From: Candidatus Methanoperedens sp. | GTDB taxonomy: Archaea; Halobacteriota; Methanosarcinia; Methanosarcinales; Methanoperedenaceae | DNA: 32,000 nucleotides | Assembly (NCBI GenBank): GCA_027460535.1 | Contig: JAPZAR010000018.1 | Span: forward strand, 30,001 to 62,000 | Direction of reading: 5' to 3' | Part shown: positions 13,369 through 32,000 of the stretch, in pieces | Layout: each line of letters opens with the position of its first letter | Position numbering within the stretch: the first letter of the stretch is position 1 | Notes under the pieces: model-generated | Databases searched by the model: none | Told to the model about the DNA's origin: nothing | Seen by the model: only the letters and a program-made list of their open reading frames with translations | Program-made: the position numbers and the translations under genes

Positions 13369-15360
13369 TCAATAATGTTGTTTGGGTATGAAATCTCCTG
13401 TTGCAGCTTTGGCGGCTTCATTTCGACCAATCACGTCTTTCTTGTAAATTTTAGCATCCGTCCCCGATCCATTATATGCTTCTATGGCAGCGTCCCAATC
13501 CTTAACTCCGTTTCTTTTTTCAAACAACCACCGAACTGCCGTGCGAATCCAGTAGTCATAATCGAGATTTCGGGCTTTGGTCGTTTCAGTAAAGAATTCC
13601 TCAACTGCTGATTCCCATCGCGTGTCCGTGGTGAAGAAAACGTTCCAGCGATCGCCGTTTTTAGATCGAGAATTGATCGTATCCAATTCCGACTTTTCCG
13701 CGGGCGTTATTGATTTGCCTTTTGCTACAAGTTTTTTTCTGCGTGCTTGAGCATCAAACATATCTTTAGTTACCTGATCGAGATTGTGTTTGATCGCGAT
13801 AGCTGGACTTATTTCCTTGATCATCAAAATTTGCTGATCTCCAGAGCTATCAATAGCCTGACCTATATTGAAACGGGTCATCCGTTGCCCTTTCGTATAT
13901 GGTGGAAGTTTGAGGAAATCTCCCAGTGTCCCCATGTGGGACTCCTGATACAACATTGATTTCACCAGGCTGGCATCCAATGCAAGCCATTTCTTTGGCG
14001 AACCGATGTTCTTATTGTAAAACGCTACCCATTTTACAATACTTGCATCGAAAGCATTGAACATGGTTTCTTCTATCAAAGCTTTGTTCAGTAATGTGCT
14101 TTGTGGGATGATGGGAATTTTTATTCCATCTGCTTCTATTTTCAAATATTCGGGAAGTGTAGCAGAGGTGTATCCTTCTCCCGTCAACTTGTATTTCAAA
14201 TCTTTAAGTTCGGTTTGCTTCACATTCATCTGGCGCTGCCATTCGGCTTTTCCATTGTCGGTCGTATACTTTTTTTCCTCTGCCTTCCAATCAGACACTA
14301 CTTTTTCCTGATCGCTGATTTTCTTTTCGAGTACGGCATATTTTTTTTCTATGCTCGCAACACCTGCATGGTATTGAGATAAGCCCGATTTGGTGTCGCC
14401 TGCTGGAACCAGAATATTTTTCTCGATAGTGACGGAGGTAACTTTACTGCCTGATGTGAAATTGGCAGTGACTGAGGTTTTGGTGTTCGACCATGCAGTA
14501 ATGACCACACTGCTTCCTTTGGGAAGAGTAAGGTCAGAAACCTTCAACTCTTTGTTGAGTATAAACATTTTCCCGATCATCTCTTCCACGGCATCTTCGG
14601 GTAGGAATCGCTGAACAATTCCAAGGCTCGATAGTCCTTGTTGCACAACATGCGTAAGCTCATGTGCCAGCAACTGCCGCCCATCAAGCGTTCCGGGCGC
14701 ATACTGCCCGGCTCCAAAGGCCACATCCTTGCCTACTGTAAATGCGAGTGCATTCAAATCCCTCGCAGACTTTGCAGCCCTTTCGTCTGTATGCAACCTC
14801 ACCTTAGTGAAGTCATGACCGAATCGTGGCTCGAAAAAGGCGCGGTCGTTTTCTGATAAAGACTGCCCTCCACCCTTGAGGGACTGGATTTTTGATTCAA
14901 TATCAGGATTTATTTCAGAGATACCACCAGAAGTTGTCTTCCCCTGAAGCTCTTCCTCCTCTTCTTCGACTGGTTTCCTTTGCAGCTTCTCCTCTTCGTC
15001 TTCTTCTTTTATCGGTTGCCGCTTCAGTTCATCAATTTCACATTTCGGGCACATCCTCTGGATGGAAGGTGTACCACCGGATAACGCCTGCGTCTGCGGC
15101 ATCCGCATCACTGCATCCGCTACTCTGTCAGCCTCCTGCTCGTAAACATCGCCTGGCGCGCCTATCCTGAGCTTGGCCTGCAGCGCTCCCGACTTCATGA
15201 GTTTCTGAACAGCCTGGTTGCCTATAGTTCTTTGAAGAAAGAGAATTTGTTCAACTGGTGAACTGAGTGGCTGGTAGAAATTACCTTTCTGCACCTGTGA
15301 AATCTGATTCTCTTTTTTTGTCTCTGGTGCTTTGACCGCTGTCTTGACTGCTTCGCCCAT
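13369..15360 (-). CDS. DUF4157-type effector: shared leader, acidic linker, HExxH DUF4157 domain, coiled coil and a C-terminal lysozyme/SLT-like domain
   Basis: 663 aa. Leader as above, then RAFFEPRFGHDFTKVRLHTDERAAKSARDLNALAFTVGKDVAFGAGQYAPGTLDGRQLLAHELTHVVQQG (DUF4157-type core). The C-terminal region carries SMLYQESHMG, NIGQAID and AIEAYNGSG, which resemble lytic-transglycosylase motifs I-III. Confidence 0.85.
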   Translation of the reverse strand: MGEAVKTAVKAPETKKENQISQVQKGNFYQPLSSPVEQILFLQRTIGNQAVQKLMKSGALQAKLRIGAPGDVYEQEADRVADAVMRMPQTQALSGGTPSIQRMCPKCEIDELKRQPIKEEDEEEKLQRKPVEEEEEELQGKTTSGGISEINPDIESKIQSLKGGGQSLSENDRAFFEPRFGHDFTKVRLHTDERAAKSARDLNALAFTVGKDVAFGAGQYAPGTLDGRQLLAHELTHVVQQGLSSLGIVQRFLPEDAVEEMIGKMFILNKELKVSDLTLPKGSSVVITAWSNTKTSVTANFTSGSKVTSVTIEKNILVPAGDTKSGLSQYHAGVASIEKKYAVLEKKISDQEKVVSDWKAEEKKYTTDNGKAEWQRQMNVKQTELKDLKYKLTGEGYTSATLPEYLKIEADGIKIPIIPQSTLLNKALIEETMFNAFDASIVKWVAFYNKNIGSPKKWLALDASLVKSMLYQESHMGTLGDFLKLPPYTKGQRMTRFNIGQAIDSSGDQQILMIKEISPAIAIKHNLDQVTKDMFDAQARRKKLVAKGKSITPAEKSELDTINSRSKNGDRWNVFFTTDTRWESAVEEFFTETTKARNLDYDYWIRTAVRWLFEKRNGVKDWDAAIEAYNGSGTDAKIYKKDVIGRNEAAKAATGDFIPKQHY

Positions 15361-16482: not shown

Positions 16483-18375
16483 TTAATAATGCCCCAGCTC
16501 AGCCTTGGGTAAATCGAGCTCATTAATGAAAGGCACATTTCCAGACCGCCTATGTTGCAAGACCCAAAAAGCAATGAGTGCCGGTGAATACAAATCGGTT
16601 GTGTCAACTCCGAAATCATCACAAATAAGATACTGGAGTTCTATGTCATAGATGCGCAAGCTGAGATTGATACTAAAACGCGTAATACGGATACTTAAGC
16701 CCTGGGTTCCACCGATGATAGCTTTCAACGCCGTGCTGTCTGAGAAACCAAAGCTAACAGCAGGAACTCCCGCCGTGGGTAGAGTGATAGCGTTGCAATC
16801 GATCACTCCCGCAGCATCCATGCTAGTCAGCTGACGTTCGATTTCCCGGATCACGCTAGCGTGCAAGCGCGAGAAAGTCCCTGAAACAAGCGCATCCGCG
16901 CCCAGTGTACTGGAACTGTCATGAGTAAGCTTGGTTCCCGTGCCACCAGAGAAATGGGTCACCATCCTCAACCCCTCCGCACCAGCTAGTCCGCCCAGTT
17001 CCAGGCGCATGCGGTTACGTAACTGGAAATCGAGAGTAAGGTGGTCAGCCTCCCATACAGCTGCCTGTTGTGCAACATTAGTACCTTTTAGTGGAGGAAA
17101 ATCATTAGATCTAAAATCTGCATCCGCACCACAAGCTCCACGGTTAAAGATCTCTCTGGGCATAGCAGTACAGGGAATAACCCTAGTCTGTATCGGCCTT
17201 GGCGGAATCAGATTAGGAGAGCCTCCTCGCATCTGTATGGAGACACGTCGGTTTGGAGAATATGATGCTGCAAATTCAGAGGTTTCGCCATGGGCAAACA
17301 TTTCTATATCGGAGGCAGGTATACCAAGTCCTCCGCTCGCCGGGCTCATAAGTGCGTTTTTGACAGCCATGGCGCGGTTGCACGAGAGAGTCCAGTTGAG
17401 GGAATCGGTACCTTCGGGGCTGGCGTAACCATCAAGACGTAAATTCTCGTTAGCGCCAGAAGCGTGCCAATTGTTAACAAAGTTGTCGATGGCAGTCTCG
17501 TCACTGGAGCTCAGGTTAGCACTGTTTACTCGGAATATGATGTCTAGATTAGAGACACCAGGAGAGTCATGCGCGATTGGGCAGGCAAGACCACTGGGTA
17601 ATTGGCTTGGATCACCTATGCGCTGAATTTGCGGTTGCACCAAGCCACCACTTTGTTGCACCGCATGCGTCAACTCATGCGCAATTAACCGCTGTCCCTC
17701 GATCGTTCTAGGTGTATACTCCCCCGCTCCGAAAACCATATCGCTGCCGATAGTGAACGCCCGCGCATTCACCGCTCGAGCCATTTCAGCCGCCCGTGTA
17801 TCTATGTGCAAACGCACCTGGCCGAAATCCTGGCCAAAACGCGGCTCGAAAAAGGCGCGTTCGTTTTCTGATAAAGGCATGCCTCCTCCTTTGAGAGACT
17901 GGATATTTGATTCGATATCAGGATTTAATTCAGAGATACTACCTGATGTTGCTTTCGCCTGAAGCCCTTCCTCCTCTTCTTCTACTGGTTTCCTTTGCAG
18001 CTTTTCTTCTTCGTCTTCTTCTTTTATCGGTTGCCGCTTCAGTTCATCATTTTCACATTTCGGGCAAGCTCTCTCGATGTTGGGTATACCACTGGATGAT
18101 GCCTGCGGCTCAGACATCCTCATCACTGCATCCGCCACCCTGTCAGCCTCCTGTTCGTAAACATCGCCGGGCGCGCCTATCCTAAGCTTAGCCTGCAGTA
18201 CACCGGATTTCATGAGCTTCTGGACAGCCTGGTTGCCAATCGTTCTTTGAAGAAATAGAACTCTATCAACCGGTGAAATTCTGGTTTTTGAACAACATGG
18301 CTTTCTGGTCTTTGATACAAAATTCTGACTATTTGCCTCATGCTTTTTAACTTCTATTCTAGATATATTGCCCAT
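16483..18375 (-). CDS. DUF4157-type effector: shared leader, acidic linker, HExxH DUF4157 domain, OmpA-like peptidoglycan-binding domain and an unknown C-terminal domain
   Basis: 630 aa. RAFFEPRFGQDFGQVRLHIDTRAAEMARAVNARAFTIGSDMVFGAGEYTPRTIEGQRLIAHELTHAVQQSG is the DUF4157-type core. IIFRVNSANLSSSDETAIDNF...LRLDGYASPEGTDSLNWTLSCNRAMAVKNAL...IEMFAHGETSEF...PNRRVSIQM is OmpA_C-like. GGGAGG lies 5 nt upstream of the ATG. Confidence 0.88.
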   Translation of the reverse strand: MGNISRIEVKKHEANSQNFVSKTRKPCCSKTRISPVDRVLFLQRTIGNQAVQKLMKSGVLQAKLRIGAPGDVYEQEADRVADAVMRMSEPQASSSGIPNIERACPKCENDELKRQPIKEEDEEEKLQRKPVEEEEEGLQAKATSGSISELNPDIESNIQSLKGGGMPLSENERAFFEPRFGQDFGQVRLHIDTRAAEMARAVNARAFTIGSDMVFGAGEYTPRTIEGQRLIAHELTHAVQQSGGLVQPQIQRIGDPSQLPSGLACPIAHDSPGVSNLDIIFRVNSANLSSSDETAIDNFVNNWHASGANENLRLDGYASPEGTDSLNWTLSCNRAMAVKNALMSPASGGLGIPASDIEMFAHGETSEFAASYSPNRRVSIQMRGGSPNLIPPRPIQTRVIPCTAMPREIFNRGACGADADFRSNDFPPLKGTNVAQQAAVWEADHLTLDFQLRNRMRLELGGLAGAEGLRMVTHFSGGTGTKLTHDSSSTLGADALVSGTFSRLHASVIREIERQLTSMDAAGVIDCNAITLPTAGVPAVSFGFSDSTALKAIIGGTQGLSIRITRFSINLSLRIYDIELQYLICDDFGVDTTDLYSPALIAFWVLQHRRSGNVPFINELDLPKAELGHY

Positions 18376-18663
18376 GGTGCCTCCCTGATGATCTATCTTT
18401 ATACTCCTTTATATTTTTAAGAAATATATTTAAGCCTCATTCGTAACCTCTATCCCTCACCTGTTCAAAATTCCTGTATCTTCATTCGCGATGTCCATGA
18501 CTTTCAACCTCCAGTCCCTACAGGGTGATTTCGTTTTAATTTTTCTACAGCTTTAATCTGCTTTTCGATAAGTTTTACTATTTTTACTCCTCCTTAATTG
18601 ATCTTATATTCTACTCAGGCACAAGGCTATGATTTGGAAGTGATGGCATCTGTTGTCCAGATT

Positions 18664-19647
18664 CTATTTTCTTCTCATTAAAAAATATACTATCAAGATT
18701 ACAATAACAAATCCAAGAATAAATACAAGAGTAAATTCAAACATTGGGGACTTTTTCAATGTTGGATCCAATTTATATGCTATGTTAAGTGCTTCTTCTC
18801 CTTCTTCTGTTCTACCTAAGTTATTAAGAACAATCCCTTTTCTATACCATGCATTTGCATACTCCGGTTCTATCGCCAGCGCCTTATTATAACTTTCCAG
18901 CTCTTCTTCATATCGTCCTAAATTACCCAGGGCAAATCCTTTGTTATACCATGCAGAAGCTGATTGCGGGTCGATTTCCAGCGCCCTATCAAAACTTCTT
19001 ATGGCATCTTCATGTCTTCCTGAACTATCTAGGGCAATTCCTTTATTTTTCCATGCATTGGCATTCTTTGGATCTATCTTCAACGTCTTATCAAAATATT
19101 CTATTGATTCATTATATTTATTAAGACTTGAAAGAGATAATCCTTTTAAAAATAATGCATCAGTGTCATCTGGATTTATTTCCAGTGCTCTATCATAACT
19201 GCTTATGGCATCTTCGTGTTTTCCCCATTTAGCAAACGTTATTCCTTTCATAAGCCATGCAGAATTATCCTCTTGATTTATCTTCAATGCTTCTTCATAA
19301 CTTTTTATTGCTTCTTCATATCTCCCCAAATTACCAAGGGCGATTCCTCTCTTATCCCATGCAACAGTTAATTTCGGGTTTAATTCCAATGCTTTATCAT
19401 AGCTTTCCAACTCCTCTTTATGTCTTCCTAATTCACCAAGGGTAGTGCCCATGTTATACCATGCATTCGCGAACTGTGGATCAAGCTGAATAGCATTGCT
19501 AAAAGCTTCAAGCGCCCCCTCATAATTTCCGGCCTTTTCTAAAGTAATACCCTCTCGGTTCCAGTCAGATGCAGTTTTTGCACCAACTGCTGATATCATC
19601 AGCGACAATACGATAGACAATAAAATAATTCTTAAAATTTTGTTCAT
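18664..19647 (-). CDS. secreted tetratricopeptide-repeat protein (8 TPRs) with a C-terminal PEF/PGF-CTERM-like anchor
   Basis: 327 aa. The signal peptide is MNKILRIILLSIVLSLMISAVGA. Eight consecutive 34-aa TPR units follow (AxAWxxKGxALxxLGRxEEAxxSYxxALExxP). The C-terminus SPMFEFTLVFILGFVIVILIVYFLMRRK combines a motif, a TM helix and a basic tail. Confidence 0.85.
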   Translation of the reverse strand: MNKILRIILLSIVLSLMISAVGAKTASDWNREGITLEKAGNYEGALEAFSNAIQLDPQFANAWYNMGTTLGELGRHKEELESYDKALELNPKLTVAWDKRGIALGNLGRYEEAIKSYEEALKINQEDNSAWLMKGITFAKWGKHEDAISSYDRALEINPDDTDALFLKGLSLSSLNKYNESIEYFDKTLKIDPKNANAWKNKGIALDSSGRHEDAIRSFDRALEIDPQSASAWYNKGFALGNLGRYEEELESYNKALAIEPEYANAWYRKGIVLNNLGRTEEGEEALNIAYKLDPTLKKSPMFEFTLVFILGFVIVILIVYFLMRRK

Positions 19648-19812
19648 ATTACTCCATAGCTTATCGAGATTTCTCTAATATTATCTGCTCTCTTTATTTT
19701 CTATAAGTTTTTGATTTTTTGTATCGCTAACTGTAATGCATTCACTAACCATTGTATCCTGCTCCAGCGCAGGAGTAAAATGGGTAGATTACCGTGTAGG
19801 TCACTGAATTTT

Positions 19813-21546
19813 TCATGAAAATGAATAGATTGCCCACGGATACAAATTTTGCTGGCAATTGGGACAATTTCGTCGAAAGACTGAAAAGTCTATTTTATCG
19901 TTACAACTGGGACATGACAATTTTTTATCTTTGATTTTAATAAAAATATAAGTTACACATGAAAAAACAAAGAAAAAAACCATCGTAAGTGGTTTATTAT
20001 TAAGAGTTTCAATTGCATAGAATCTGATTAAGATATACAAGAATGATGATAGAATCGAAACAAATATGAAATTTTTTACTGCTTCTTTTTTATTAAAACT
20101 TCTCCGTATCAGAATTGATGAAAAAATCAGAATGTATAGCAATACAATTGAAAAATAGAGAGCATGCCAGAACCATGCTTTCGCTATATCTAGGAGATTG
20201 CTCATTATAGTATTAATTTCATAAAGGGAAATAATTGCGGGAAAATAAATTAATTCATTGGTCAACCATCCTAAACTGAATGCCATTGAAAATTTTATTA
20301 GATTTGAAATAGTAGTGGACGAAAAATAGTTCTTCTTTTCAATAAAAGTATCTCTTAATATCGATTTATGAAAACTAAGGCTTACAGGCAGCATCAGAAC
20401 AGGAACGATGAAAACAGAGATAATAGCTCTAAGACCAATATATATCTCTCCACTTGATTGATAGTTCTCATTTGCCATTGCAGCCCATTCAGAAGAAGAC
20501 AATGAAAAAATCTGATTGAAAAAAGGCAACGATAACTCAATTAAACCGTAGAAAAAACCAATACTAAATGCAATCCATAGACTTGGATCAAACAGGCTCA
20601 GATTATTTTTAAGGATCTGAATTCTTTCGTTTATATTCGGGTGAAATTTTTTTAGTAATTCAAATTTCGAGTACTGCTCTCCGCCACTTTCTTCCAGAGT
20701 TTTTACAATATTTTCAGGAGATCTTTCCCATTCAACAACTCTTGCATCTGCATAAAACTCTCTAATACGGATTATCTGGTTTCGCAATACATAGATAACT
20801 CCTAAAAAAATTATAAAATAAATAATGATCCCTCCATATAATGCCACTCTTTTTCCAATATCCATTTTAGAGATTATATAATCCATATCATATCCTGCGA
20901 GATTCCCCAAGTAAAATATGCTTAACGCAAGATATATTTCATATAATAGAAAAATTCCAAGCGGTACTGACAGGGTCAGGAAAAGCGACCGCCATGTAGA
21001 ATTCGCCAGATAAGTTTTTTCAACATCTCTGTTAACTATATGACCCATTTCATGAAGGAAAATCGTTTTGAAACCATTGAGATTTTCCCGAAACATTTTG
21101 ATCAGCCCGCCAGGAATACCAATGTACATATGATTTTTCGTACCAAAAGTAAAAGCGGACTTTGATGCATCCAGTGGTTGAACCATCAGCACAGGTTTTT
21201 TCTCTCTCGAAAAGTATTCACTATGTAGCTTTTCAATGTATTCATGGTGTTCTGGATACTTTTTTGGGTCAAACTCCTTCAATTTTGATTCTTTTTCAAT
21301 TTTTCCTGTAGATTTTTTATAATCCCTGTAAATCAAAATGGGGATAAATAAGAAAATCGGAATCACAATCAATAATCGGAGAATAAGCGTTATCTCAGCG
21401 CCGGCCATCACATAAAAAATAACAATCGCAAATATCAGAGCCCATAAAGATGGAACGATAATGCCAATTAAGACCATTAAGTAAAATCGAATATCGGTCT
21501 CCGAGATATACACGAAAGGATTTAAACGGATATCATTTTCGTTCAT
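19813..21546 (-). CDS. polytopic membrane M48-like (HtpX/Ste24-type) zinc metalloprotease with a C-terminal zinc ribbon
   Basis: 577 aa. HEMGH lies at nt 21040-21054 (FLHEMGHIVNRD), and the downstream REFYADARV is the M48 third-ligand ExxAD pattern. There are many hydrophobic helices. The C-terminal CPSCNDKIDFSVFRRNCPNCQ forms a CxxC...CxxC ribbon. Confidence 0.8.
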   Translation of the reverse strand: MNENDIRLNPFVYISETDIRFYLMVLIGIIVPSLWALIFAIVIFYVMAGAEITLILRLLIVIPIFLFIPILIYRDYKKSTGKIEKESKLKEFDPKKYPEHHEYIEKLHSEYFSREKKPVLMVQPLDASKSAFTFGTKNHMYIGIPGGLIKMFRENLNGFKTIFLHEMGHIVNRDVEKTYLANSTWRSLFLTLSVPLGIFLLYEIYLALSIFYLGNLAGYDMDYIISKMDIGKRVALYGGIIIYFIIFLGVIYVLRNQIIRIREFYADARVVEWERSPENIVKTLEESGGEQYSKFELLKKFHPNINERIQILKNNLSLFDPSLWIAFSIGFFYGLIELSLPFFNQIFSLSSSEWAAMANENYQSSGEIYIGLRAIISVFIVPVLMLPVSLSFHKSILRDTFIEKKNYFSSTTISNLIKFSMAFSLGWLTNELIYFPAIISLYEINTIMSNLLDIAKAWFWHALYFSIVLLYILIFSSILIRRSFNKKEAVKNFIFVSILSSFLYILIRFYAIETLNNKPLTMVFFFVFSCVTYIFIKIKDKKLSCPSCNDKIDFSVFRRNCPNCQQNLYPWAIYSFS

Positions 21547-22007
21547 TGTATCCCCATGAGCGTCAATTTTCCAATTATAGAATCAGCATAAAAACCTGCT
21601 TTCTGCTCATCTATCCCCATGGATAAAGCATCCTTGAATACATAATCTCTTAAATCCTTGATTTTCGCATTTGATGTATGAACCTCTTTTCCCCCTATTT
21701 TTTCTTTGATCTTATCCTCTAAAGCCTTTGCACCCTCCTTTTTTAGGGATTCGACTCCGGCCTTACCGATATGTGCTATAACACCCCAGATAAGCGGAAG
21801 AATCGTAGTTGTAATGAATACTTCTCCAACTCCACCTCCAAAACCCAGCATTTTTTCTTTTTTCTTAGGATCTTTCTCCAGAAAAGCATCAGGATTTTTA
21901 AGATATTCTTCTTTTATATCGTCGAATAAATCCAGTTCATCAGGTGCCACTTCTTTTATAATTTCATACGAAAGGCGAGACGCCAATTCTTCACTATTTT
22001 TATCCAT
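21543..22007 (-). CDS. hypothetical protein, translationally coupled to the M48-like protease
   Basis: 154 aa. Its stop overlaps the downstream start (ATGA at 21543-21546). GGTGGTGA Shine-Dalgarno upstream. It has one central hydrophobic segment (VFITTTILPLIWGVIAHIG) and Lys/Glu-rich flanks. I recognise no motif. Confidence 0.6.
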   Translation of the reverse strand: MDKNSEELASRLSYEIIKEVAPDELDLFDDIKEEYLKNPDAFLEKDPKKKEKMLGFGGGVGEVFITTTILPLIWGVIAHIGKAGVESLKKEGAKALEDKIKEKIGGKEVHTSNAKIKDLRDYVFKDALSMGIDEQKAGFYADSIIGKLTLMGIQ

Positions 22008-22184
22008 TTTTTCACCACCTTAAATCACATAATCAGATTTGGTTTTTAATGTACAGACCTCTTACTTGAAAGTCCAGAGGTATCAGTGTTAGTTCTGTCA
22101 ATTTTTTGGGATTTCTATAGTCTACCTGATCTTTTTGATTTGATTCAGGCGCGGGTACGGAATTGAATAATAATGAATATTTAC

Positions 22185-22988
22185 TCAGATGATATTGGTG
22201 TCAGTAAGCCACATATCCATCGTTGAAGTAAATTTATCGTAAAGGCCACCACCGGTAAAGACCGAAGTTCCAGAACGATAGAAGCCACCGAATCCAATAT
22301 GTGGCAGGTAATATTCGCGCACAATATAATCGTGGGATTGATCATCACATGTTTCCACACCCGCAGTTATCTGACACATCGGTTTATAATAACGTTCGGA
22401 AATTACTACTGCGGGACGATTGTTGATTGTGGTCTCGCCTATAGATTTCTTACGATTCAGCGGAAAAATAACCTATGAAACCTTCATCGTCATGTGAGTC
22501 AAACAGTCTAGCTGCCCTATGGTTAGTGCCATCATATTAACCGATATAAATGACTCCATCTCTTGAAGCCAAATATTTCACTTTGTTAATAGATAATGGA
22601 TAACTATCACCGGACAGCGTGTATTTGATGCGATGAAAGGTTATTTCACCCAAATCAGTCATGTCCCAAATTTCAGAATCGGTCAATTCTATAATTAAGG
22701 TTCCAGATATTGTGGGGTCACCAGAAGAAGCATACTCCCACGAATATTTCCAGTAGGCACCCTTAAATAATTTGATATCATCAAAACCTTTGTAAAGGAA
22801 AGTAGGTGACTTGCTGGTAGGGGTCTCAGTTATAGTTGGAGTGTTCCCTCTCTTGTATGATGTTGTAGTTGGTTGAGTTTCTTTATCGTTTCATTCCATA
22901 CAGCTTTTTCTTGCACACAGCCACTTATAAAAACAACTACACTCGTCAATAATCCCAAGAACATTATCATTCTTAATTTATTAATCAT
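22185..22988 (-). pseudogene. decayed lipoprotein gene (two frameshifts plus an in-frame stop)
   Basis: The ATG at 22988 gives MINKLRMIMFLGLLTSVVVFISGC (signal peptide plus lipobox Cys), and that frame stops at 22830-22832. The coding signal continues one frame over from about 22890 (NDKETQPTTTSYKRGNTPTITETPTSKSPTFLYKGFDD...ASRDGVIYIG). It is interrupted by TAA at 22537-22539 and continues (YDGTNHRAARLFDSHDDEGFIGYF). It then shifts frame again near a T5 run at about 22470 (...NRKKSIGETTINNRPAVVISERYYKPMCQITAGVETCDD...TDTNII*, ending at 22185). The 22185..22379 track ORF is only the last piece. Confidence 0.55.
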
Positions 22989-23122
22989 ATTCCCACCATC
23001 ATTTTAATTATATTACCTAAGTAAATATTTTTCGAAAGATAAAAGCGCGTTAAGAGCAAAGTGGAATATTATTTTTGAGAGAAATGAAATATAGTTTCCT
23101 ATACGTCAATAATCCAATTTCT

Positions 23123-23366: not shown

Positions 23367-26300
23367 TCAACTTGAATATACGAATATATCGATAACCCCT
23401 TTTCCTGACTCATGCCTATCAAGGGCTTTTCCTATAATCGTTCCTGGTCGAAATAATTCTTCACCTTTAATTTTTATAGGACTGGCTTTCATAGCATGAC
23501 CAGGGATTGAAGAAGATGTTAATAAATTTCCCCTTTTTATCGGACCATTTTCATCAACAACTTTACAGGGAACACGACCACACAGGGCAACAGGAAATAC
23601 CTTTTCACCGTCACGCTTTGTATTTAACAAGAATCCAGGTGCAGTCGATATAACTCCGAGGACTAAACAGTCATCCGGCTTTTCCGATATGATGATTCTA
23701 TCCTCGTCCTGGTCCAAACGAACAACATCTCCAGGTTCAAGATCCATATCTGAAGAATAGTTCTCAGCTAGGTCGCCAACCAAACCGGTTTTGAAACCAT
23801 AACTTGAATACATTGTTCCCTCTGCTTGCACATCACCTGCAACATGCAGCGCGCATACTGGGTCCGTTGTCATGATGCCGACGTAGCCTTTATTATAGTA
23901 AATACGCCCGGCGATAGAACCATCAATCCATTTGCTTGCGCCAAAAATATTTTTTAATCCTGAGCCATCGCCAACAAACGCATCCGCCTTAACTGTACCG
24001 ATGACTTCTAATTCTTTTGATGGCGTTATCGTACCGATGCCGACATTTCCTTTATCGTAATAGATACCGCCAGCAGCATCAGACCATTTGCCTGCGCCTG
24101 TTAACTGTGAGCCATCGCCTATGAATTTCGTTGCGCTGACAGTTCCATTAACTGATAAATCGCTGGCAGCATAAGCGTTCCCCACGAAGATATTGCCATT
24201 AATATCAATTCTCATTTTCTCTTTACCGTTTATCCTAAACTCCAGACCTTGAGAATTGCCTTTGACATCAATGTATGAAGTATCATCGTTATCTCCCTTG
24301 ATATCCAGACAGATTTCTCCCTCATCACCGAGACGCAGATGGCTACCGTTCCAACGCCTTCCGAGTAGCGTTAAAGAAGGATAACCATTGCCGATGATTA
24401 AAAGCCCTTCCTTATCATAATCATCTGGAACATATTGATCTTCGCCTGCATAAGTAAATTCGCCAATCTGGAGCTTTCCTGATGGGCTCTTTGTACCGAT
24501 GCCGACGATGCCATTATAAAAAATACTATCAGGGACTGCACCATCTGACCATTTGCCTTCATTGATACCTGTTAATCCTGATCCATCGCCTATGAACTTA
24601 TCTGCCTTAATGGTGCCTATAACAGATAGTCTATCGGTTGCAGATGGTGGTGTCCCGATACCCACGTTGTTCTTATAATAAATCCCGGCAGGGTCGCCGA
24701 GCCATTGGGTTTTACCGGTTAACTTCGAGCCGTCACCTATGAACTCCTTGGCTTTGACAGGGCCGTCAACGTATAAATTACCTAATAATTCCACATTACC
24801 CTTTCCATCAATACTGATTCTGATCAATTCCCGGGTCATGAGATAAATAGAATTGGACCCACCCATCGAGTTAATTTGCAGGCCACCTCCACCAGTACCT
24901 TCAGCCTGAATCCTGATATCGCTGTTTGTATCCTCAGTCGAAAGCCTTAATGCGTAACCGTCATTGCTTTTCACATCTAACCCATAACCTGGCGTGGATG
25001 TGCCAATGCCAACATTGCCTTTATCATAATAAATCCCGGCAGGGTCATTGAGCCATTGGCTGGCTCCTGTTAACTGCGAACCATCACCTAAGAACACATC
25101 TGCTTTAACAGTGCCGGCGACCTCTAATTCATTTGACGGCTTATCCGTCCCGATACCGACATAGCCGCCATTACGGTTTATATAAGTATTTGCAGCGCTA
25201 TTATTTATTAACAAGGCTTCAAGCTCTTTTGACCAGAGAATATCCGCTTTCTGTGTGCCATCTTCATAGAAAGATATCACCGGGTCGGGTATGAATTCTG
25301 CCAGCATTGGTACGGGGGCCGGACTGGAACCATGGATCCTGACATAATCACCTGACATAGAATCAATCGGTTGAACAAGAAGATCCCCGTTCCTTACTTC
25401 AAGTTTTGATTCCGGATTCAGCGTCCCAATACCGACATTCCCCATAATCTCGGCATTTTCGGCTAAATTCAATGTATCTCCTGAGAATCCAGATGCATTA
25501 ATGTTAGTGGCTTTAACTGTGCCATTAACGTGCAGTAGTTTTTCAGATGGTTCATCGATACCTATGCCAACATTGCCATCGTTATCAACAATCAGGGCAG
25601 GGTCAGGAGAGCCGTCTGAACCCACGAGTTTGCTGTGCTTATGGAGTTCATCTGCAATTGAAGCATCGGTCAATTTAAGCACATTGTCACCGTAAACTAA
25701 ATCTAACAAATTATTTTCAAGACCGATTTTCCATTTGCTATTTTTCTCAATAGCCTCCTCTCGCCATATTATCTGGGCATTTGGTGCTGTCCCACCCCGA
25801 TAAACCTCTAAACCGCCATCACCAATAAGCGGTTTTTTATTCCCGGGGGGTGGATAATCATGTACTGTAATGATATTGTCTGAAATTACTACTCCTTCTT
25901 TCCGGGTCCCTTTGACTGTAAGATTACCATCAATCGTACAATTACCATCGACTGCCAGATTTTTATCACCCGGATCAGATGTGCCTCCGATGTGCAGACC
26001 GCCGGGCATCCCGCTTTTTACCTCAAGCGTCCCATTAACAGTGCAATTGCCATCTACGACCAGATTTTTATCACCCGGCTCAGACGTGCTTCCGATACGA
26101 AGACCGCCTGTGAAATTCGTTAAAGGAGAATTGATTTGAATCCCGTTTTCAGCATCAAACTTCTTTCCCTCGATAGAAAGTGCGCTTTCTTCCCCATCCA
26201 CAGATAGCGCCAGTTTACCGTAGGCTCCAGCATAAATGCGGTCTTCATTTTCGATATGGACATGTCCATCTATCAATTTGACCTTTGCCAGTATGATATG

Positions 26301-26771
26301 ACTTTCATTGTCAGGTTTATTTTCAGGTTTAACTGCAATTAATTCAACTTTGGCTGTTTCCAGCCAGTTGATTTCTTCACTCCCCCCCTTCGACTCATCA
26401 GTATAGTTTTTTTCCTCAAACCGATAAATATAAAAATAGACTCCATCACCTTCAGCTGCAGTGCCTTTGAGTTCGATATCATCTGTCTCAGCAAAAAGAA
26501 TGATCTCCTGACTTACATCATCTTCATTTGCTGCTTTCACCTTATTGAGCGCCATGCCCGGCTTTATTTTTACACTTGTGGGATTGGATCCCTCTACTAC
26601 CTCCAGTCCCCATACTATCCCGTGGCTGTGCAGATGCCCGTTATGAAGCCGCCGCATCCTGATATGATAATTCTGGTCAAGCACGAACTCTTCCTGTTTC
26701 AGGAACAGTTCATTAAAGTATCGCATCCTTCTGACTTCTTTCATTTTCTCAATGTCATCCAACGTTATCAT
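23367..26771 (-). CDS. eCIS/phage tail-fibre-like protein with repeated GNVGIGT...FIGDGSxLTG units
   Basis: The track ORF is 23367..26825. I prefer the ATG at 26771 (MITLDDIEKM...) because GGAGGT lies 6 nt upstream. At least six repeat units of the form IYYxKGNVGIGTxxPxxxLEVxGTVKAxxFIGDGSxLTG occur between nt 23826 and 25583. A tandem ~33-aa duplication (G-T/S-SxPGDKNLxVDGNCT) lies at 25908-26111. The non-repetitive C-terminal domain is about 150 aa. Confidence 0.85.
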   Translation of the reverse strand: MITLDDIEKMKEVRRMRYFNELFLKQEEFVLDQNYHIRMRRLHNGHLHSHGIVWGLEVVEGSNPTSVKIKPGMALNKVKAANEDDVSQEIILFAETDDIELKGTAAEGDGVYFYIYRFEEKNYTDESKGGSEEINWLETAKVELIAVKPENKPDNESHIILAKVKLIDGHVHIENEDRIYAGAYGKLALSVDGEESALSIEGKKFDAENGIQINSPLTNFTGGLRIGSTSEPGDKNLVVDGNCTVNGTLEVKSGMPGGLHIGGTSDPGDKNLAVDGNCTIDGNLTVKGTRKEGVVISDNIITVHDYPPPGNKKPLIGDGGLEVYRGGTAPNAQIIWREEAIEKNSKWKIGLENNLLDLVYGDNVLKLTDASIADELHKHSKLVGSDGSPDPALIVDNDGNVGIGIDEPSEKLLHVNGTVKATNINASGFSGDTLNLAENAEIMGNVGIGTLNPESKLEVRNGDLLVQPIDSMSGDYVRIHGSSPAPVPMLAEFIPDPVISFYEDGTQKADILWSKELEALLINNSAANTYINRNGGYVGIGTDKPSNELEVAGTVKADVFLGDGSQLTGASQWLNDPAGIYYDKGNVGIGTSTPGYGLDVKSNDGYALRLSTEDTNSDIRIQAEGTGGGGLQINSMGGSNSIYLMTRELIRISIDGKGNVELLGNLYVDGPVKAKEFIGDGSKLTGKTQWLGDPAGIYYKNNVGIGTPPSATDRLSVIGTIKADKFIGDGSGLTGINEGKWSDGAVPDSIFYNGIVGIGTKSPSGKLQIGEFTYAGEDQYVPDDYDKEGLLIIGNGYPSLTLLGRRWNGSHLRLGDEGEICLDIKGDNDDTSYIDVKGNSQGLEFRINGKEKMRIDINGNIFVGNAYAASDLSVNGTVSATKFIGDGSQLTGAGKWSDAAGGIYYDKGNVGIGTITPSKELEVIGTVKADAFVGDGSGLKNIFGASKWIDGSIAGRIYYNKGYVGIMTTDPVCALHVAGDVQAEGTMYSSYGFKTGLVGDLAENYSSDMDLEPGDVVRLDQDEDRIIISEKPDDCLVLGVISTAPGFLLNTKRDGEKVFPVALCGRVPCKVVDENGPIKRGNLLTSSSIPGHAMKASPIKIKGEELFRPGTIIGKALDRHESGKGVIDIFVYSS

Positions 26772-26843
26772 ATTTTTACCTCCTTGTTTTATTATAATCA
26801 TTTCTCTTAATATCTTTAAACTCACTCGATTTCCATTGACAGA

Positions 26844-27860
26844 TCATGCCTCCGTGCTTTCGCGGATCAAGCTTCCAAGCAGTGTATCCACCCCGATTTT
26901 TGAATGTACTCCTATTTGCATGGTGGGTGCCTCAGTAATCAGATAATAATATGTGTGAGCCGGTTTTTCAAGATTGATGATGTTCCTTATGACGCGCCTC
27001 CTCTTTTCCAGTATCTCCCGACTCGCTGTGGGCAGCTCGATATATACCTGGAAATAATAGGGGCGTCCTTCCCGTATCGCTGTATTCGTTCCGATCGTGG
27101 AACTGACGCCTATCTGTAATGTCTCCAGGAACTCATTTATTGATATCTTGACATCTTCGCCCACATAGATCCGGATGAACTTTCGCAGTCCGTCAAGCGT
27201 TCCTCGCCTCTGGTACAGCGGGATTATCTTCGCAATAAGATCGCGCTTTTTCGCAGCGTTATTCTCATTCCATTCATCCTCTTCTCTCGGAACAAGGGCC
27301 ATCCAGCCTGCAAGCCAGGGAAGGAACTCAAGAGGCATATTAAGAGGTTCGAAATAGATATGGATCTGGTCAATTATTTCCTCTATACCTTTTCTTTGAG
27401 TTACTTCATAAGGGAACGCTTCTACCAGAAGCATCATGTTCAGGCGGATGAGGTCATTACCGACCGGATTTTTTTCAAGAAGCTCTGCGGTTTCAGGAGA
27501 TAATTTTATCCTCTGGAAGCGGTTTTTTTCATATATCGAATTTCCAAGGAGCAGGTTCTTGAATTCTTCATTCAGGGCTTTTTGAAGGGCTTCTGACGGC
27601 TGACTTGCATTCATGAACTCATCCAGAATCCGCCTGTTCTCTTGTGAAAATCTATCCTTAATGAAAACGGACAGGGGATTATTAGCATCAAGCAATTTGT
27701 ACGCCAGACCAGCCGGATCTTTGATCTCCACGCGGAACAGTGAGTATTTTGAAAGGATGTTCTCAAATACTTTCAGGAACCTTTCAAGAAAGCCATCTTT
27801 TTCTATCTGATAGATGGCAGGCAAATACCGAAGATAATTTCTGTCGTTATTGTCATTCAT
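26844..27860 (-). CDS. phage P2 gpI-like baseplate wedge / tail protein (eCIS Afp12/Pvc12-like position)
   Basis: 338 aa. YLRYLPAIYQ...FLERFLKVFENIL, EFLPWLAGWMAL, IIPLYQRRGTLDGL and NLEKPAHTYYYL match the conserved blocks of the phage-tail-protein-I (TIGR02242-type) family. The start overlaps the upstream gene by 8 nt. Confidence 0.8.
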   Translation of the reverse strand: MNDNNDRNYLRYLPAIYQIEKDGFLERFLKVFENILSKYSLFRVEIKDPAGLAYKLLDANNPLSVFIKDRFSQENRRILDEFMNASQPSEALQKALNEEFKNLLLGNSIYEKNRFQRIKLSPETAELLEKNPVGNDLIRLNMMLLVEAFPYEVTQRKGIEEIIDQIHIYFEPLNMPLEFLPWLAGWMALVPREEDEWNENNAAKKRDLIAKIIPLYQRRGTLDGLRKFIRIYVGEDVKISINEFLETLQIGVSSTIGTNTAIREGRPYYFQVYIELPTASREILEKRRRVIRNIINLEKPAHTYYYLITEAPTMQIGVHSKIGVDTLLGSLIRESTEA

Positions 27861-29712
27861 ATTTCACCGTTTCTATGTCGAATTTCTCCAATGCGATCAG
27901 CTGGTGCTTCTCGATCGCAAGTGTCGAAGCATTTTCAACATCGTTTATCCAGATTTTAGCGACATAGTCTACGCCGTTGATATTTTCCAGCAGGTTGTAC
28001 ACTTCAGAGCGGTAGATATGCCTGCCCATGGGCCAGCCAGTTCCCTCCGGTCCGCCTGAGATCGGATTGAAATATTCTTTAATCCTTCTTTCAGCCTCAG
28101 ATATCACTTCGGCTTGCTTAATATTTTCTTTAATGGCAAGCTGCACTCTCAGCTTCACATTTGCATAAACAGGACTCACCACATGCACACGTGTCGTGAT
28201 CAATCTCCTCGCATCCAGATATGCTTTGATCTCTTCCAGCAACAGATCTGAAGGTTTTCCCTCTTCTTTGCAATATCTGGAAATCTCGTATATATTTAGA
28301 ATACTATTTTCTTTTATAGCATTAAGCGCAAAGGTGCAACCATCATCGATTTTCAGGTTCACAATGGTTTTCGTATCATTAAGTTTTAGAGAAAGAGTTT
28401 TTTCTTCAGTAGATACATTTATTGTCCTACCATTATCGATTTTTTCAATTTTTGCTATTTTTGCCAAATCAATACCATATTTCTGTTCCAGAAATTCTGC
28501 GAGTTTCCCATTATCGTTTCCCGGGATTTCATCCCATCTGAACAAATATGAATCTTCTACTCCGCGTGGAATAATGATCACAGAAACATGTCCTGGAAGC
28601 TCCTCATTTACCCCATATTCTTCAATTCCCTTGCTGTATAATAGTTTCCGGTTGGTCATGCAGACAGCCCTTCCCGGAGGGTCTTTTTGCAGCAGGATTT
28701 TCATACAATCCTGTGCTCTTTTTTTATAATCTTCTGACGTGATGGCCCTGTACATGGATTCCATGAATTCAACGGGAGCCTGTTTGATTTCCGAGATGCT
28801 CTTCTTTTTTCCATCATTGATTTCGACCAAGAAATTGAGAAGATTTTTATAAGCTCCGTCCAGATCAGGCATATTATATATGTTCAATCCTCCATTTTCT
28901 TTTATGGAATGCAGGTAGCGCACCTTACAGCCATTGATATTGAGATTTCCTTTTCCCTCAATTTCATCCACTTTTATTTCTATCCACTTTTTGCCTGAGG
29001 AAATATTGAGAGTCTTAATTGAAGGATTATATACGTTAAGTTTGTCTTCTCCTTCCATCAAAACGAATTCATCGGTTCTACCATCATCGGTTATCAGCCT
29101 TACCTTCTTTTCCTCTTTTTTAAGTCCAAGAGAGACAAATTTATCTCCTGAAGATAGTTTTATGGTTTCATCATATGTGTCATCATGATAATTTTTAACT
29201 ATTATTGATTTTTCCACCCAATCAATACCAAATCTCATTTTTAAAAATGATGTGAGTATTTTGTCATCGTTTCCTGGTACATCGTTCCAGGAAAAAAAAT
29301 ATGATTGATCGTGCTTTATGATCTTCGCATTATCATAATTTGTTACCCAATCTAAACCGAGTTCGGTCTTCAGGAAATTCCGTAATCTGATCTCACCATC
29401 CGGTTTAAAATCATTCCAGTCAAATAAATACGTGCTTTCAAGTATTTTCTCGAGATCGTCTTTATTCTGTGTTCCTGCGATGAGCTTCAGGAAGTTGGTA
29501 TAGGATTCTACAGTGACCTGGTTCATCCTGTACATTACCATTTCGCTGAGCCATGCGAAAAGTTCAAGGAGCGTTATTCCAGGATCTGATGGATTGTGGT
29601 TTGTCCAGTCCCTGTCATAATTAAGGATAAGCGATCGCGCCTCTTTCATCAGGTCATCGAAACGTCTGTCATCCAGATTAGGTATTGGTAAATTCGATAT
29701 AGGTACGGACAT
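27853..29712 (-). CDS. baseplate J-like assembly protein (gpJ/gp6/Afp11-like) with an inserted novel repeat module
   Basis: 619 aa. The N-terminus is NLDDRRFDDLMKEARSLILNYDRDWTNHNPSDPGITLLELFAWLSEMVMYRMNQV. The C-terminal J-domain blocks are YRAITSEDYKKRA, HVSVIIIPRG, RRLITTRVHVVSPVY and GGPEGTGWPMGRHIYRSEVYNLLENINGVDYV. The region between them is occupied by the repeats described in the findings. Confidence 0.85.
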   Translation of the reverse strand: MSVPISNLPIPNLDDRRFDDLMKEARSLILNYDRDWTNHNPSDPGITLLELFAWLSEMVMYRMNQVTVESYTNFLKLIAGTQNKDDLEKILESTYLFDWNDFKPDGEIRLRNFLKTELGLDWVTNYDNAKIIKHDQSYFFSWNDVPGNDDKILTSFLKMRFGIDWVEKSIIVKNYHDDTYDETIKLSSGDKFVSLGLKKEEKKVRLITDDGRTDEFVLMEGEDKLNVYNPSIKTLNISSGKKWIEIKVDEIEGKGNLNINGCKVRYLHSIKENGGLNIYNMPDLDGAYKNLLNFLVEINDGKKKSISEIKQAPVEFMESMYRAITSEDYKKRAQDCMKILLQKDPPGRAVCMTNRKLLYSKGIEEYGVNEELPGHVSVIIIPRGVEDSYLFRWDEIPGNDNGKLAEFLEQKYGIDLAKIAKIEKIDNGRTINVSTEEKTLSLKLNDTKTIVNLKIDDGCTFALNAIKENSILNIYEISRYCKEEGKPSDLLLEEIKAYLDARRLITTRVHVVSPVYANVKLRVQLAIKENIKQAEVISEAERRIKEYFNPISGGPEGTGWPMGRHIYRSEVYNLLENINGVDYVAKIWINDVENASTLAIEKHQLIALEKFDIETVKYE

Positions 29713-29733
29713 GTGTTGCCTCGAAAGAAAAAA

Positions 29734-32000
29734 TCAGCGTTTAGACAATTCAGCTCCAAAACACCATCTGCAGTAATCGTATACATTGGTCATATCAAGA
29801 TCATCATAATTTCTGATGAACTTTCTATGCCCAAGTCTTATATCAGGAAGATGGCAGTTCTTCTTCCAGTTATTCAATTTATGGACCTCCCGGGTGTTTG
29901 TATTAATAAGATAAGGGAATTCAGGAAGTTTTCCGTTATGTACCAGATTATATATTTCATCGATTTTGACATCGGGTAATCCCTCCTCCTCCTCACTCTT
30001 ATTTATCACATGTGTACCGGAATAAACAAGATAGTTATCATCTATGAAAATGGTTTCAACCTTATCACTTATTTCTTTTATCTGTGAAGAATCAATCTTA
30101 GTTGGATCATCCCTGAGCCCGAGGAACAATTTATCACTTATCTCAAGTGGCGCTACCTTGAGATTAATGATGTCGCTATTCGCAGGCACACCTTCGGTAA
30201 TGAATGACTTAATTCTCTTATCAAATGTTTCCACGACGCTCCAAGGAGGGAATCCAGTTTCAGATCGTACGGATTCACATTCAAGGATGTCACCCTTAAT
30301 ATTATGAGACACGGAACTAACAACAAGAAGTTTCCTGTTTTCGCCATCTCTGAGGATAATATTGTCTCCTTCTTTAAAACCCACTACAGTAAGAGTATCA
30401 GTTCCTTCAAGTGGAAGTCGTTCAGCCAGAGAGAATATTGCTCTGTCATAGATTTTCGTTTTGTCCTTTGCAACCAATTCATCGGTCCTGATGTTATCGA
30501 TTGTGAGGATCAGCCTTGTTGGATCATCATCAAATCTGATCGAAACCGTGTTATTGACGATCTTATTGTAAGTGTATATGTTTAGCTTATTATTCTCGAC
30601 CTTCGCCTCGAATTTATCGGTCCTGTGGTCAGTTGAGATCGAAAGGTCTGCTTTGGTTTTTGTAGCGTCGAGCCTGATCAGAATATAGTTTTGATTCAAA
30701 GGTGGCCATACAAAAGGACCTTTGATTTTCAGGGTTATGCCATTGTCAATTTTTCTAACTATCGAAAAAACTTGATCTAACCAGTCCAAACCAAATTCTT
30801 CTCTTAGATATGTAATAAGTTTATATTTTTCTTTTCCCGGTACTTCCTCAGTATCGGCAACCTCTTCCCAGCTGAACAAATATTTATTATATATGTGATT
30901 ATATGTGTACACATATATGACATTCTTGGTTTTTTCAATCGTTTCTCCCTTCTCAAAGTCAATGCCAAAATTCTGTGTCAGATAAGCTTTCAAATTTTTT
31001 GAATCTTTTCCCGGAATTTCATCCCAGTCAAATAGGAATTTCTTACCTATCGACACAATACTGCGCTCTGGATAAACAACCGATGGAGTTATTTCATTGA
31101 TTTTCAATTTATAAATCTGTATCGAAGCATTAAGATACAGCTGATCCACATAGTCCACACCATCCGTATTCTTGATGACTTTATAAACTTCCGATATATA
31201 AACATCCCTTCCGAAATCCCGTCCTTTATTGTCTGTACCCCCGTGCAGCGGGTGAAAGAACTCATTCAGTCTTTTAATGATCCTGCCTTCAATGGTCTTT
31301 GCCTCGGGGATCGAAGTGAACTGGACAGAAGCTACCACTCCCACCTTGATATAACCCGGACCTATCATATTGATCTGGGAACGGTCTATGAGATGGGTCG
31401 ATGTCTTTTTTTCAATATCATCTTTAATGCTATCTATTAATTCCTGGGTCGGAAGAGGTTTGTGATCGTCGCTTTCCGGGACTATGATCACCGTGACCCA
31501 GCCGGATTTTGTCCTCTGGGTGGGATCTTTGACTGGCAGGCATTTTGCTTTTGCTACTTTTGGGGATGCCCTGACCAGCCACTCATAGTCCTCTAAAGTG
31601 ACTGCTCTTTCATGGTGTTTGATAGTCTGAGGTCCTCTTTCTTCAGCACTTTCCAGGGTCTCCTTATCCCATCCGCCATCTGCATCCGCGTGATTCGTGA
31701 CTGACTTGACAAATGGAAAAGCGGTCTTTAGTTTTGTTATGGAGTATGCCCTGGCATTATTTCCATCATTTCCCCCTCCATACCGATAGCTGCACACGAT
31801 ATTATTTTTTCCAGCTGGAGGGATCATCCCTCTTACTCCGTCGCCAAAGGTTATTGTCCCATTAATCCTGTCTATAATATAGTGCCTGCTATGGGGTCCA
31901 GAAGAGAAGAAATGGCTTACCTCATGCCATCGAACCCGGTAACCTGTGATGTTGCCTGCATCATCCTTAAGATCTTTGACTGCTGCCTTATCGTTTTTTT
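29734..32000 (-). CDS. baseplate J-like assembly protein, 5'-truncated by the window edge, with a C-terminal repeat-module extension and a Cys/His knuckle
   Basis: The track ORF starts at the Met at 31827, but the same frame is open to 32000 (...GYRVRWHEVSHFFSSGPHSRHYIIDRINGTITFGDGVRGMIPPAGKNNIVCSYRYGGGNDGN). That stretch is the conserved mid-section of baseplate-J-family proteins, so the true start lies beyond the window. The J-domain blocks are ERAVTLEDYEWLV, WVTVIIVPES and GGTDNKGRDFGRDVYISEVYKVIKNTDGVDYV. Confidence 0.85.
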   Translation of the reverse strand, partial: KNDKAAVKDLKDDAGNITGYRVRWHEVSHFFSSGPHSRHYIIDRINGTITFGDGVRGMIPPAGKNNIVCSYRYGGGNDGNNARAYSITKLKTAFPFVKSVTNHADADGGWDKETLESAEERGPQTIKHHERAVTLEDYEWLVRASPKVAKAKCLPVKDPTQRTKSGWVTVIIVPESDDHKPLPTQELIDSIKDDIEKKTSTHLIDRSQINMIGPGYIKVGVVASVQFTSIPEAKTIEGRIIKRLNEFFHPLHGGTDNKGRDFGRDVYISEVYKVIKNTDGVDYVDQLYLNASIQIYKLKINEITPSVVYPERSIVSIGKKFLFDWDEIPGKDSKNLKAYLTQNFGIDFEKGETIEKTKNVIYVYTYNHIYNKYLFSWEEVADTEEVPGKEKYKLITYLREEFGLDWLDQVFSIVRKIDNGITLKIKGPFVWPPLNQNYILIRLDATKTKADLSISTDHRTDKFEAKVENNKLNIYTYNKIVNNTVSIRFDDDPTRLILTIDNIRTDELVAKDKTKIYDRAIFSLAERLPLEGTDTLTVVGFKEGDNIILRDGENRKLLVVSSVSHNIKGDILECESVRSETGFPPWSVVETFDKRIKSFITEGVPANSDIINLKVAPLEISDKLFLGLRDDPTKIDSSQIKEISDKVETIFIDDNYLVYSGTHVINKSEEEEGLPDVKIDEIYNLVHNGKLPEFPYLINTNTREVHKLNNWKKNCHLPDIRLGHRKFIRNYDDLDMTNVYDYCRWCFGAELSKR

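Follow-up and report, generated by a model that had tools for sequence, protein, structure and literature searches.

Within a 32,000-nt stretch of a Candidatus Methanoperedens sp. genome (contig JAPZAR010000018.1, positions 30,001 to 62,000; hereafter the window), two adjacent genes encoding baseplate J-like wedge proteins of a contractile injection system carry a repeated module of 87 amino acids. We conclude, with a probability of about 85%, that each of these modules is a copy of a DNA transposon of the non-autonomous MITE type (miniature inverted-repeat transposable element), which is translated in frame as a probably self-folding domain within its host proteins. The element has a length of 262 bp, 14-bp terminal inverted repeats and an 8-bp target-site duplication. 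Insertion of the element together with its duplication adds 270 bp, which is exactly 90 codons, so that the reading frame of the host is never shifted. On this reading the two wedge proteins received six insertions, five of them inside the window, and twice the insertion went into an older copy.

Element copies, termini and empty sites

The first-pass annotation had described a two-part repeat, with five copies of a part A and five copies of a part B as separate units. The repeat is real, since translation of its seven ranges reproduces every quoted peptide and an independent protein hidden Markov model (HMM; 87 positions, derived from 25 module copies from elsewhere) matches all seven pieces of both window proteins, with independent E-values (i-E, quoted per piece below) from 1e-40 to 3e-6. 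A DNA profile (nhmmer) recovered five of the seven pieces and no other place in the window. However, the division into two units has to be given up: an A-only and a B-only piece complement each other to form a single 87-aa module, which is interrupted by a second copy nested inside it. In both proteins the A-only piece covers model positions 1 to about 40 and the B-only piece extends from about position 41-49 onward to 87, with a complete copy between them, and the break points of the split copies lie in predicted loops of the module. The succession of A only, A plus B and B only thus exists because a new copy twice landed inside an older copy. The same copy-within-copy arrangement is also present at loci L011 and L028. 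Besides the five elements in the window, a sixth is located in the same CIS11 gene outside of it (residues 578-666).

The first host gene encodes a short baseplate-J/gp47-like wedge protein of 619 aa (27853..29712, minus strand; Pfam Baseplate_J and TIGR02243). All copies in the window likewise lie on the minus strand. M3, a complete 262-bp copy at 28288..28549 (HMM 1-87, i-E 1.3e-40; nhmmer 213 bits, full model), occupies residues 389-475 in a loop of the J domain, as the annotation had recognized for the copy within this domain, and is the window copy nearest to the family consensus. It is flanked by the 5' target-site duplication GAAGATTC (28550..28557, minus strand) and the 3' target-site duplication GAGATTTC (28280..28287, minus strand). 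Closer to the N-terminus, M1 is split into a 5' half, the earlier 'A only' (29303..29431, residues 95-131; HMM 1-37, i-E 1.5e-7), and a complementary 3' half, the earlier 'B only' (28876..29028, residues 233-279; HMM 41-87, i-E 3.3e-6). Nested within M1 is the complete copy M2 (29029..29302, residues 138-228; HMM 1-87, i-E 1.2e-25; nhmmer 119 bits), whose flanks GATCAATC and AATCCTTC are alike at 5 of 8 bases. The modules had been thought to replace a region of this protein, but subtraction of the three elements leaves a core of 348 aa, the size of module-free homologues (340-440 aa).

The second host gene is represented by the last 754 codons, encoding the C-terminal part, of a 1686-aa CIS11 (baseplate J) protein (29734..32000, minus strand), with the frame open to the window edge and TIGR02243 positions 388-658 matched. 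Here M5, a complete copy with internal length changes (30574..30883; HMM 1-87, i-E 7.1e-20; nhmmer 83 bits), is nested within M4, which consists of a 5' half (30884..31039; HMM 1-40, i-E 2.4e-13; nhmmer 45 bits) and a 3' half (30448..30573; HMM about 49-81, i-E 4.2e-6; nhmmer 31 bits). The sequences TATAATAA and TACAATAA, at a 3-nt offset, constitute a possible duplication of M5. In this protein the modules had been described as appended after the J domain; because about 240 further residues come after them, they are not a terminal appendage.

Of the 14 bases in the consensus termini of the element, GTATTTGTTTAGCT and AGCTAAACATATAC, 13 are complementary. In individual copies, complementarity of the inverted repeats averaged 9.7 of 13 positions compared to 3.5 in internal controls, and rare synonymous codons are fixed at the termini (TTG in 19/24, CTA in 16/21 and ATA in 21/21). 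The 9 nt on either side of the 261-nt coding module showed 51% identity, compared to 33% in the controls (permutation p <5e-5). This duplication signal was limited to that one register and carried by the first 8 flank positions, and the ninth flank base, directly preceding TATTTG, is mostly G. Therefore we define the unit as a 262-bp element with an 8-bp target-site duplication. An exact 23-nt DNA search of metagenomes, which is blind to strand and frame, provided an unbiased sample of 11 full copies. All of these are preceded by G, three are flanked by perfect 8-bp duplications (CTTAATCT, GAACATTT and CTTTTCGT), and three more show agreement at 7 of 8 positions. The duplications are merely AT-rich 8-mers without consensus, and no target motif was found among them.

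Empty sites further define the insertion. The closest orthologue of the 619-aa protein (L005) is devoid of the J-domain copy and reads GTA GAAAATTC C AAG TAT TGT at this position, and the filled site of the window reads GTA GAAGATTC A-element-GAGATTTC C AGA TAT TGC. The reverse case was found as well: in L005 the old 3' half contains an extra canonical copy that is missing from the window. Similarly, the orthologue of the 1686-aa protein in L030 has acquired a copy in a place where the window gene is unoccupied. Among 117 homologues of the 619-aa protein 61 are module-free, bacterial ones included, and the Methanoperedens orthologues contain 1-8 modules each. The modules concentrate in two permissive regions of the wedge protein, one after the N-terminal helices and the other in a single J-domain loop. 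As expected of a MITE, the element is short and encodes no transposase, its sole open reading frame (ORF) being the 87-aa module, and inverted repeats, a duplication of fixed length, dispersed copies and insertion polymorphism are all found. Copies of one subfamily are 90-94% identical in unrelated flanks, which points to a fairly recent burst; other non-orthologous copies are at most 83% identical.

Distribution, encoded domain and competing explanations

With a profile built from the copies in the window, we recovered small proteins that are 55-73% identical to the J-domain copy and have unrelated flanks. Scanning one genome per species identified 45 loci, nearly all in metagenome-assembled genomes of Candidatus Methanoperedens (ANME-2d), with a few from other Methanosarcinales (Methanothrix, ANME-3) and several genomes harboring more than one copy. 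At all 45 loci the module is in frame with a long surrounding ORF, and these ORFs (135-1269 aa) differ from locus to locus and are unrelated. An exhaustive profile search matched 2,290 clusters (50% identity) at E<=1e-3 and 534 at E<=1e-30, with up to 11 matched stretches per protein; the carriers come almost entirely from Methanoperedens and related Methanosarcinales. A scan of 82 carriers matched 47 Pfam families, mostly unrelated to tails, among them TPR, pentapeptide, ParA-like, DNA primase large subunit, RFC, RAMP/Cas, HEAT and AAA. In a Hel308-type helicase the copy is situated between the two helicase lobes (DEAD and Helicase_C domains; L021), and type I-D Csc2 has one copy near its C-terminal end (L002). 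No copies were detected in IMG/VR viral contigs. A bacterial host was considered and rejected: the sole 'Anaerolineales' contig (L021, JAIWAT010000004.1) encodes the archaeal Hel308-type helicase and is probably misbinned. This contig also encodes a KaiC-like ATPase.

Several copies show peculiarities. The Csc2 module in the type I-D CRISPR-Cas locus (L002, 5307-6489) has on its two sides a direct repeat whose length, about 20 nt, is unusual (gacaaaaaaaaggataaaaa / gacaaaaagaaggataaaaaa); there is an apparent frameshift in the Csc2 gene at an A-run, possibly caused by misassembly. One module copy (L025, 3001-3315) has an internal 54-nt insertion that encodes ASCAHPDAWVCTGMEMDI and follows the conserved PGNDNG motif. 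Four carriers, P0027 (775 aa), P0048 (887 aa), P0016 (1561 aa) and P0017 (1189 aa), possess between 7 and 11 stretches of the module, and several of these follow each other immediately in head-to-tail order, which suggests tandem duplication of inserted copies besides transposition.

A single stop-free sense frame of the element encodes the 87 residues YLFSWDEIPGND...KLNIY. Apart from this frame only the in-phase antisense frame is open; both remaining sense frames and both remaining antisense frames are interrupted by stops. The in-phase antisense peptide is hydrophobic and essentially absent from protein databases: as a query it retrieved 1 protein from 3 candidates, compared to 15 from 341 for the sense profile. 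This one protein is short, and we regard it as a shadow ORF. Most variation between copies falls on third codon positions, and the ratio of nonsynonymous to synonymous substitution rates (dN/dS) is about 0.33 for copies versus the consensus. Between orthologous copies dN/dS ranges from 0.15 to 0.56, and in the host sequence from 0.13 to 0.25. Once inserted, copies are thus under constraint, although less tightly than their hosts.

AlphaFold2 (AF2) predicts the module alone, from 11 sequences, as a compact alpha/beta domain (pLDDT 90.9, pTM 0.79) with the order one strand, one helix and six strands, and this pattern recurs for each copy in the model of the full 619-aa protein. Searches of local copies of Pfam and NCBIfam with single modules and with the consensus returned no family. 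A match to the LIC10124 lipoprotein model is treated as chance because it is marginal (E 1e-3 to 2e-4, 17-20 bits versus a cutoff of 650) and absent for the consensus. A sequence profile search of the PDB found nothing below E 0.1, and a fold search of the PDB with the module model (Foldseek) gave a best E of 0.14 and TM-scores of at most 0.46. Precomputed matches to PF27311 ('AF_1994_N'), a family from a Pfam release later than the local copy, classified as 'faint' and below significance, are recorded on the multi-copy carriers P0018 and P0021, which have only this module in common; single-copy carriers have no recorded PF27311 match. Searches of the literature for AF_1994 returned unrelated accession numbers only.

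Mechanistically, the element bears the hallmarks of cut-and-paste DNA transposition with 8-bp staggered target cuts and would be mobilized in trans, probably by a DDE-type transposase. Insertions in the right phase and sense orientation into a surface loop or linker would leave the host protein functional and would thus persist, and purifying selection would subsequently keep the peptide foldable. The domain itself would presumably remain in the mature protein and have no function at the level of the host. More tentatively, the element may be an obligately intragenic transposon, a DNA-transposon counterpart of the inteins, that was shaped at the level of the element itself through its 90-codon length, its one stop-free frame and an autonomously folding domain with adjacent termini. 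It might then hide in host proteins, where imprecise deletion kills the gene, and thereby have spread through a large part of the proteome of Methanoperedens; that it is nearly absent between genes could result from such a lock-in or from targeting of coding frames.

Several observations weigh against the transposon interpretation. Among about 420 kb of related loci we found no autonomous element or parent insertion sequence with matching inverted repeats. Duplications of older copies are often degraded, with only 2-3 of 8 bases alike for M1 and M4 of the window. The J-domain site is filled in distant orthologues (L046, P0164-P0173) and empty in the closest one (L005), which requires repeated insertion or precise loss. 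Finally, the bias towards genes is stronger than expected. Of the DNA-level matches, 77/82 are in frame in long ORFs, one is apparently intergenic and none is antisense or out of frame, whereas a neutral model of random insertion followed by selection predicts a ratio of in-frame genic to intergenic copies of at most about 1:1. This implies that something more is involved. Our preferred explanation of the excess is a deletion bias with genic copies locked in place, targeting or co-option being the alternatives.

Such co-option would mean that the domain of the MITE gives its carriers a common property, as an interaction tag, a localization signal or a decoy, and that in-frame copies are positively retained. 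The genic in-frame excess, at least 10-fold above the expectation of the neutral model, would be accounted for in this way, as would the purifying selection that continues after insertion and the hydrophobic pattern kept by the old degenerate copies M1, M2, M4 and M5. We nevertheless consider co-option unlikely: the host proteins have unrelated functions, copies have been lost from, or are missing in, close orthologues whose aligned protein sequence is otherwise without visible change, and copy dN/dS is 2-3 times that of the host sequence. Moreover, deletion bias together with genic lock-in can explain the excess without function.

The first-pass annotation had suggested a mobile, independently folding decoration of the baseplate periphery, for example an adhesin or a receptor- or carbohydrate-binding unit, outside of any known family. 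Mobility was borne out by the terminal inverted repeats, by the duplicated target site, by orthologues in which the site is empty and by the nesting of copies, independent folding is supported by the AF2 prediction of the module alone and by the same secondary structure within the host model, and neither Pfam and NCBIfam nor the PDB, by sequence and by fold, yielded a relative. Homologues free of insertions, whose existence had been raised as a check, do occur, as described above. The decoration itself finds no support given a module present in 2,290 protein clusters and in carriers that match 47 Pfam families. An ordinary functional domain of this kind, which duplication and domain shuffling had brought to the periphery of the baseplate to serve the injection system, would agree with a predicted well-folded structure under purifying selection, and the 1-8 copies that wedge orthologues carry in two recurrent regions might be taken for adaptive decoration. 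We judge this origin highly improbable, as copy boundaries are fixed at the nucleotide level with inverted repeats and 8-bp duplications, close orthologues differ in presence and absence in both directions, and the module also resides in DNA primase, RFC, Hel308, Cas7/RAMP, ParA-like, TPR and many other proteins. In addition, its fold is unlike that of known binding domains (best PDB E 0.14, TM <=0.46). Removal of the insert before maturation, either by intein-like protein splicing or as an archaeal bulge-helix-bulge type intron formed from the inverted repeats, has a next to negligible likelihood, even though the inverted termini could pair in the RNA and inteins, too, are in-frame selfish inserts also found in housekeeping genes. 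The module has no Hint-domain signature and no Pfam match, and it starts with Tyr and ends with N-I-Y followed by variable residues. With removal at the RNA level, fixed frame and orientation and selection on the peptide would be needless, yet copies are exclusively sense and in frame with a dN/dS of about 0.3-0.5. Returning to the transposon interpretation, the modules in the two wedge proteins reflect selfish DNA in permissive loops and no baseplate function.

The contractile injection system locus

Both baseplate-J genes are located on the minus strand and belong to the distal part of an operon for an extracellular contractile injection system (eCIS). The AF2 model of the full 619-aa protein (pLDDT 80.7) resembles wedge proteins of contractile injection systems, phages and pyocins (9gtp_1G, E 8e-12), and it is the core of the model that constitutes the resembling part. 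The N-terminus of the CIS11 protein lies past the window end, and the full 1686-aa gene is contained in L048, a longer version of this contig, in which genes for tube, spike, PAAR and gp25 come before it. This upstream ORF also matches Baseplate_J besides TIGR02243. Downstream of the baseplate-J genes follow a Tail_P2_I/CIS12-like protein and a fibre of 1152 aa. The locus seems to be chromosomal, as suggested by GatA and GatB at 2.8-5.7 kb. At the C-terminus of CIS11 (29734-29990) we noted a Cys/His-rich stretch (...NWKKNCHLPDIRLGHRKF...YDYCRWCFGAELSKR) that resembles a small metal-binding motif, with no family match seen.

In the 338-aa Tail_P2_I/CIS12-like protein (26844-27860) of the window, a degenerate module copy was not supported (HMM E 0.8-1.8). 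Its orthologues in L027 and L038 have the MITE module at residues of about 45-155. At this place the window protein has a different segment of about 105 residues, shared with L005, which aligns loosely to the module with the same E-values and could be either a very degenerate copy or a different insertion. The 1152-aa fibre (23367-26825) includes many G-N-V-G-I-G-T-like repeats with a weak match to the Chlorovirus glycoprotein repeat, has a weak CIS13 match at its N-terminus and contains no MITE copies.

Downstream of the fibre, eCIS_core (Pfam PF13699) is found in two paralogues on the minus strand, of 663 aa (13369-15360) and 630 aa (16483-18375), the latter additionally with an OmpA domain. 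They are accompanied by a TPR protein (18664-19647) and an M48 peptidase (19813-21546) and may serve the injection system as cargo or accessory genes. The region 18000-23000, which spans the TPR gene, the M48 gene and small ORFs within the eCIS cluster, has a G+C content of 0.32-0.40, compared to 0.44-0.51 across most of the remaining window.

Implications and comparison with known elements

To our knowledge, selfish DNA inside protein-coding genes is known essentially from the Rickettsia palindromic elements (RPEs). The Methanoperedens element extends this idea to archaea and in a more extreme form, as a true transposon encoding a complete domain that is predicted to fold, in thousands of carrier proteins including replication and repair enzymes and Cas proteins. 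Its copies amount to a natural proteome-wide domain-insertion scan, each marking a loop in which 90 to more than 270 additional residues are tolerated; for the contractile injection system, the two permissive regions of the wedge protein are possible display sites. For annotation, the element accounts for proteins of inflated length, for repeat domains that appear to be new and for small orphan ORFs in the genomes and metagenomes of Methanoperedens. It also poses the evolutionary questions of how a foldable domain came to be encoded by a transposon and why hardly any of the copies are intergenic. In the literature on Methanoperedens MITEs or in-frame insertions and on RPE-like archaeal elements we found no description of the element, which does not appear to have been described so far.

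Classical prokaryotic MITEs, such as Correia, ERIC, BOX and Nezha, the SM1-4 elements of Sulfolobus and the MITEs of Haloquadratum, are mainly intergenic and their coding capacity is incidental. The element described here shares with them its small size, its non-autonomous nature, terminal inverted repeats, target-site duplications, many dispersed copies and empty-site polymorphism. In contrast to classical MITEs, in-frame translation of a conserved domain with a predicted fold is the rule here, and the length of element plus duplication is divisible by three. Inteins represent a second point of comparison, as selfish in-frame inserts that persist in essential proteins as independently folding units whose ends must meet. 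They excise by means of the Hint fold with conserved Cys/Ser and His-Asn residues, whereas the module, which starts with Y-L-F-S-W and ends with L-N-I-Y before variable following residues, is devoid of splicing residues, presumably stays in the mature protein and moves by DNA transposition instead of homing.

The closest known analogue is the RPE family, in the sense of a functional analogy for which no sequence relationship is expected. RPEs (reviewed in PMC10969869, citing Ogata et al. 2000 Science 290:347; 2002 Genome Res 12:808) are short repeated mobile DNA sequences located in frame in many unrelated genes, housekeeping genes included, and the extra peptide translated from an RPE is judged to be compatible with the fold of the host protein. 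They are palindromic, bacterial and about 100-150 bp long, and according to the review roughly half of the copies are in ORFs. Like them, the archaeal element is mobile, repeated, in frame in unrelated genes and translated. It differs from RPEs in being archaeal, in its length of 262 bp, in its 14-bp inverted repeats and 8-bp duplication and in its self-nesting, and furthermore in that it encodes a complete 87-residue domain, as confidently predicted, and is almost exclusively intragenic (77/82).

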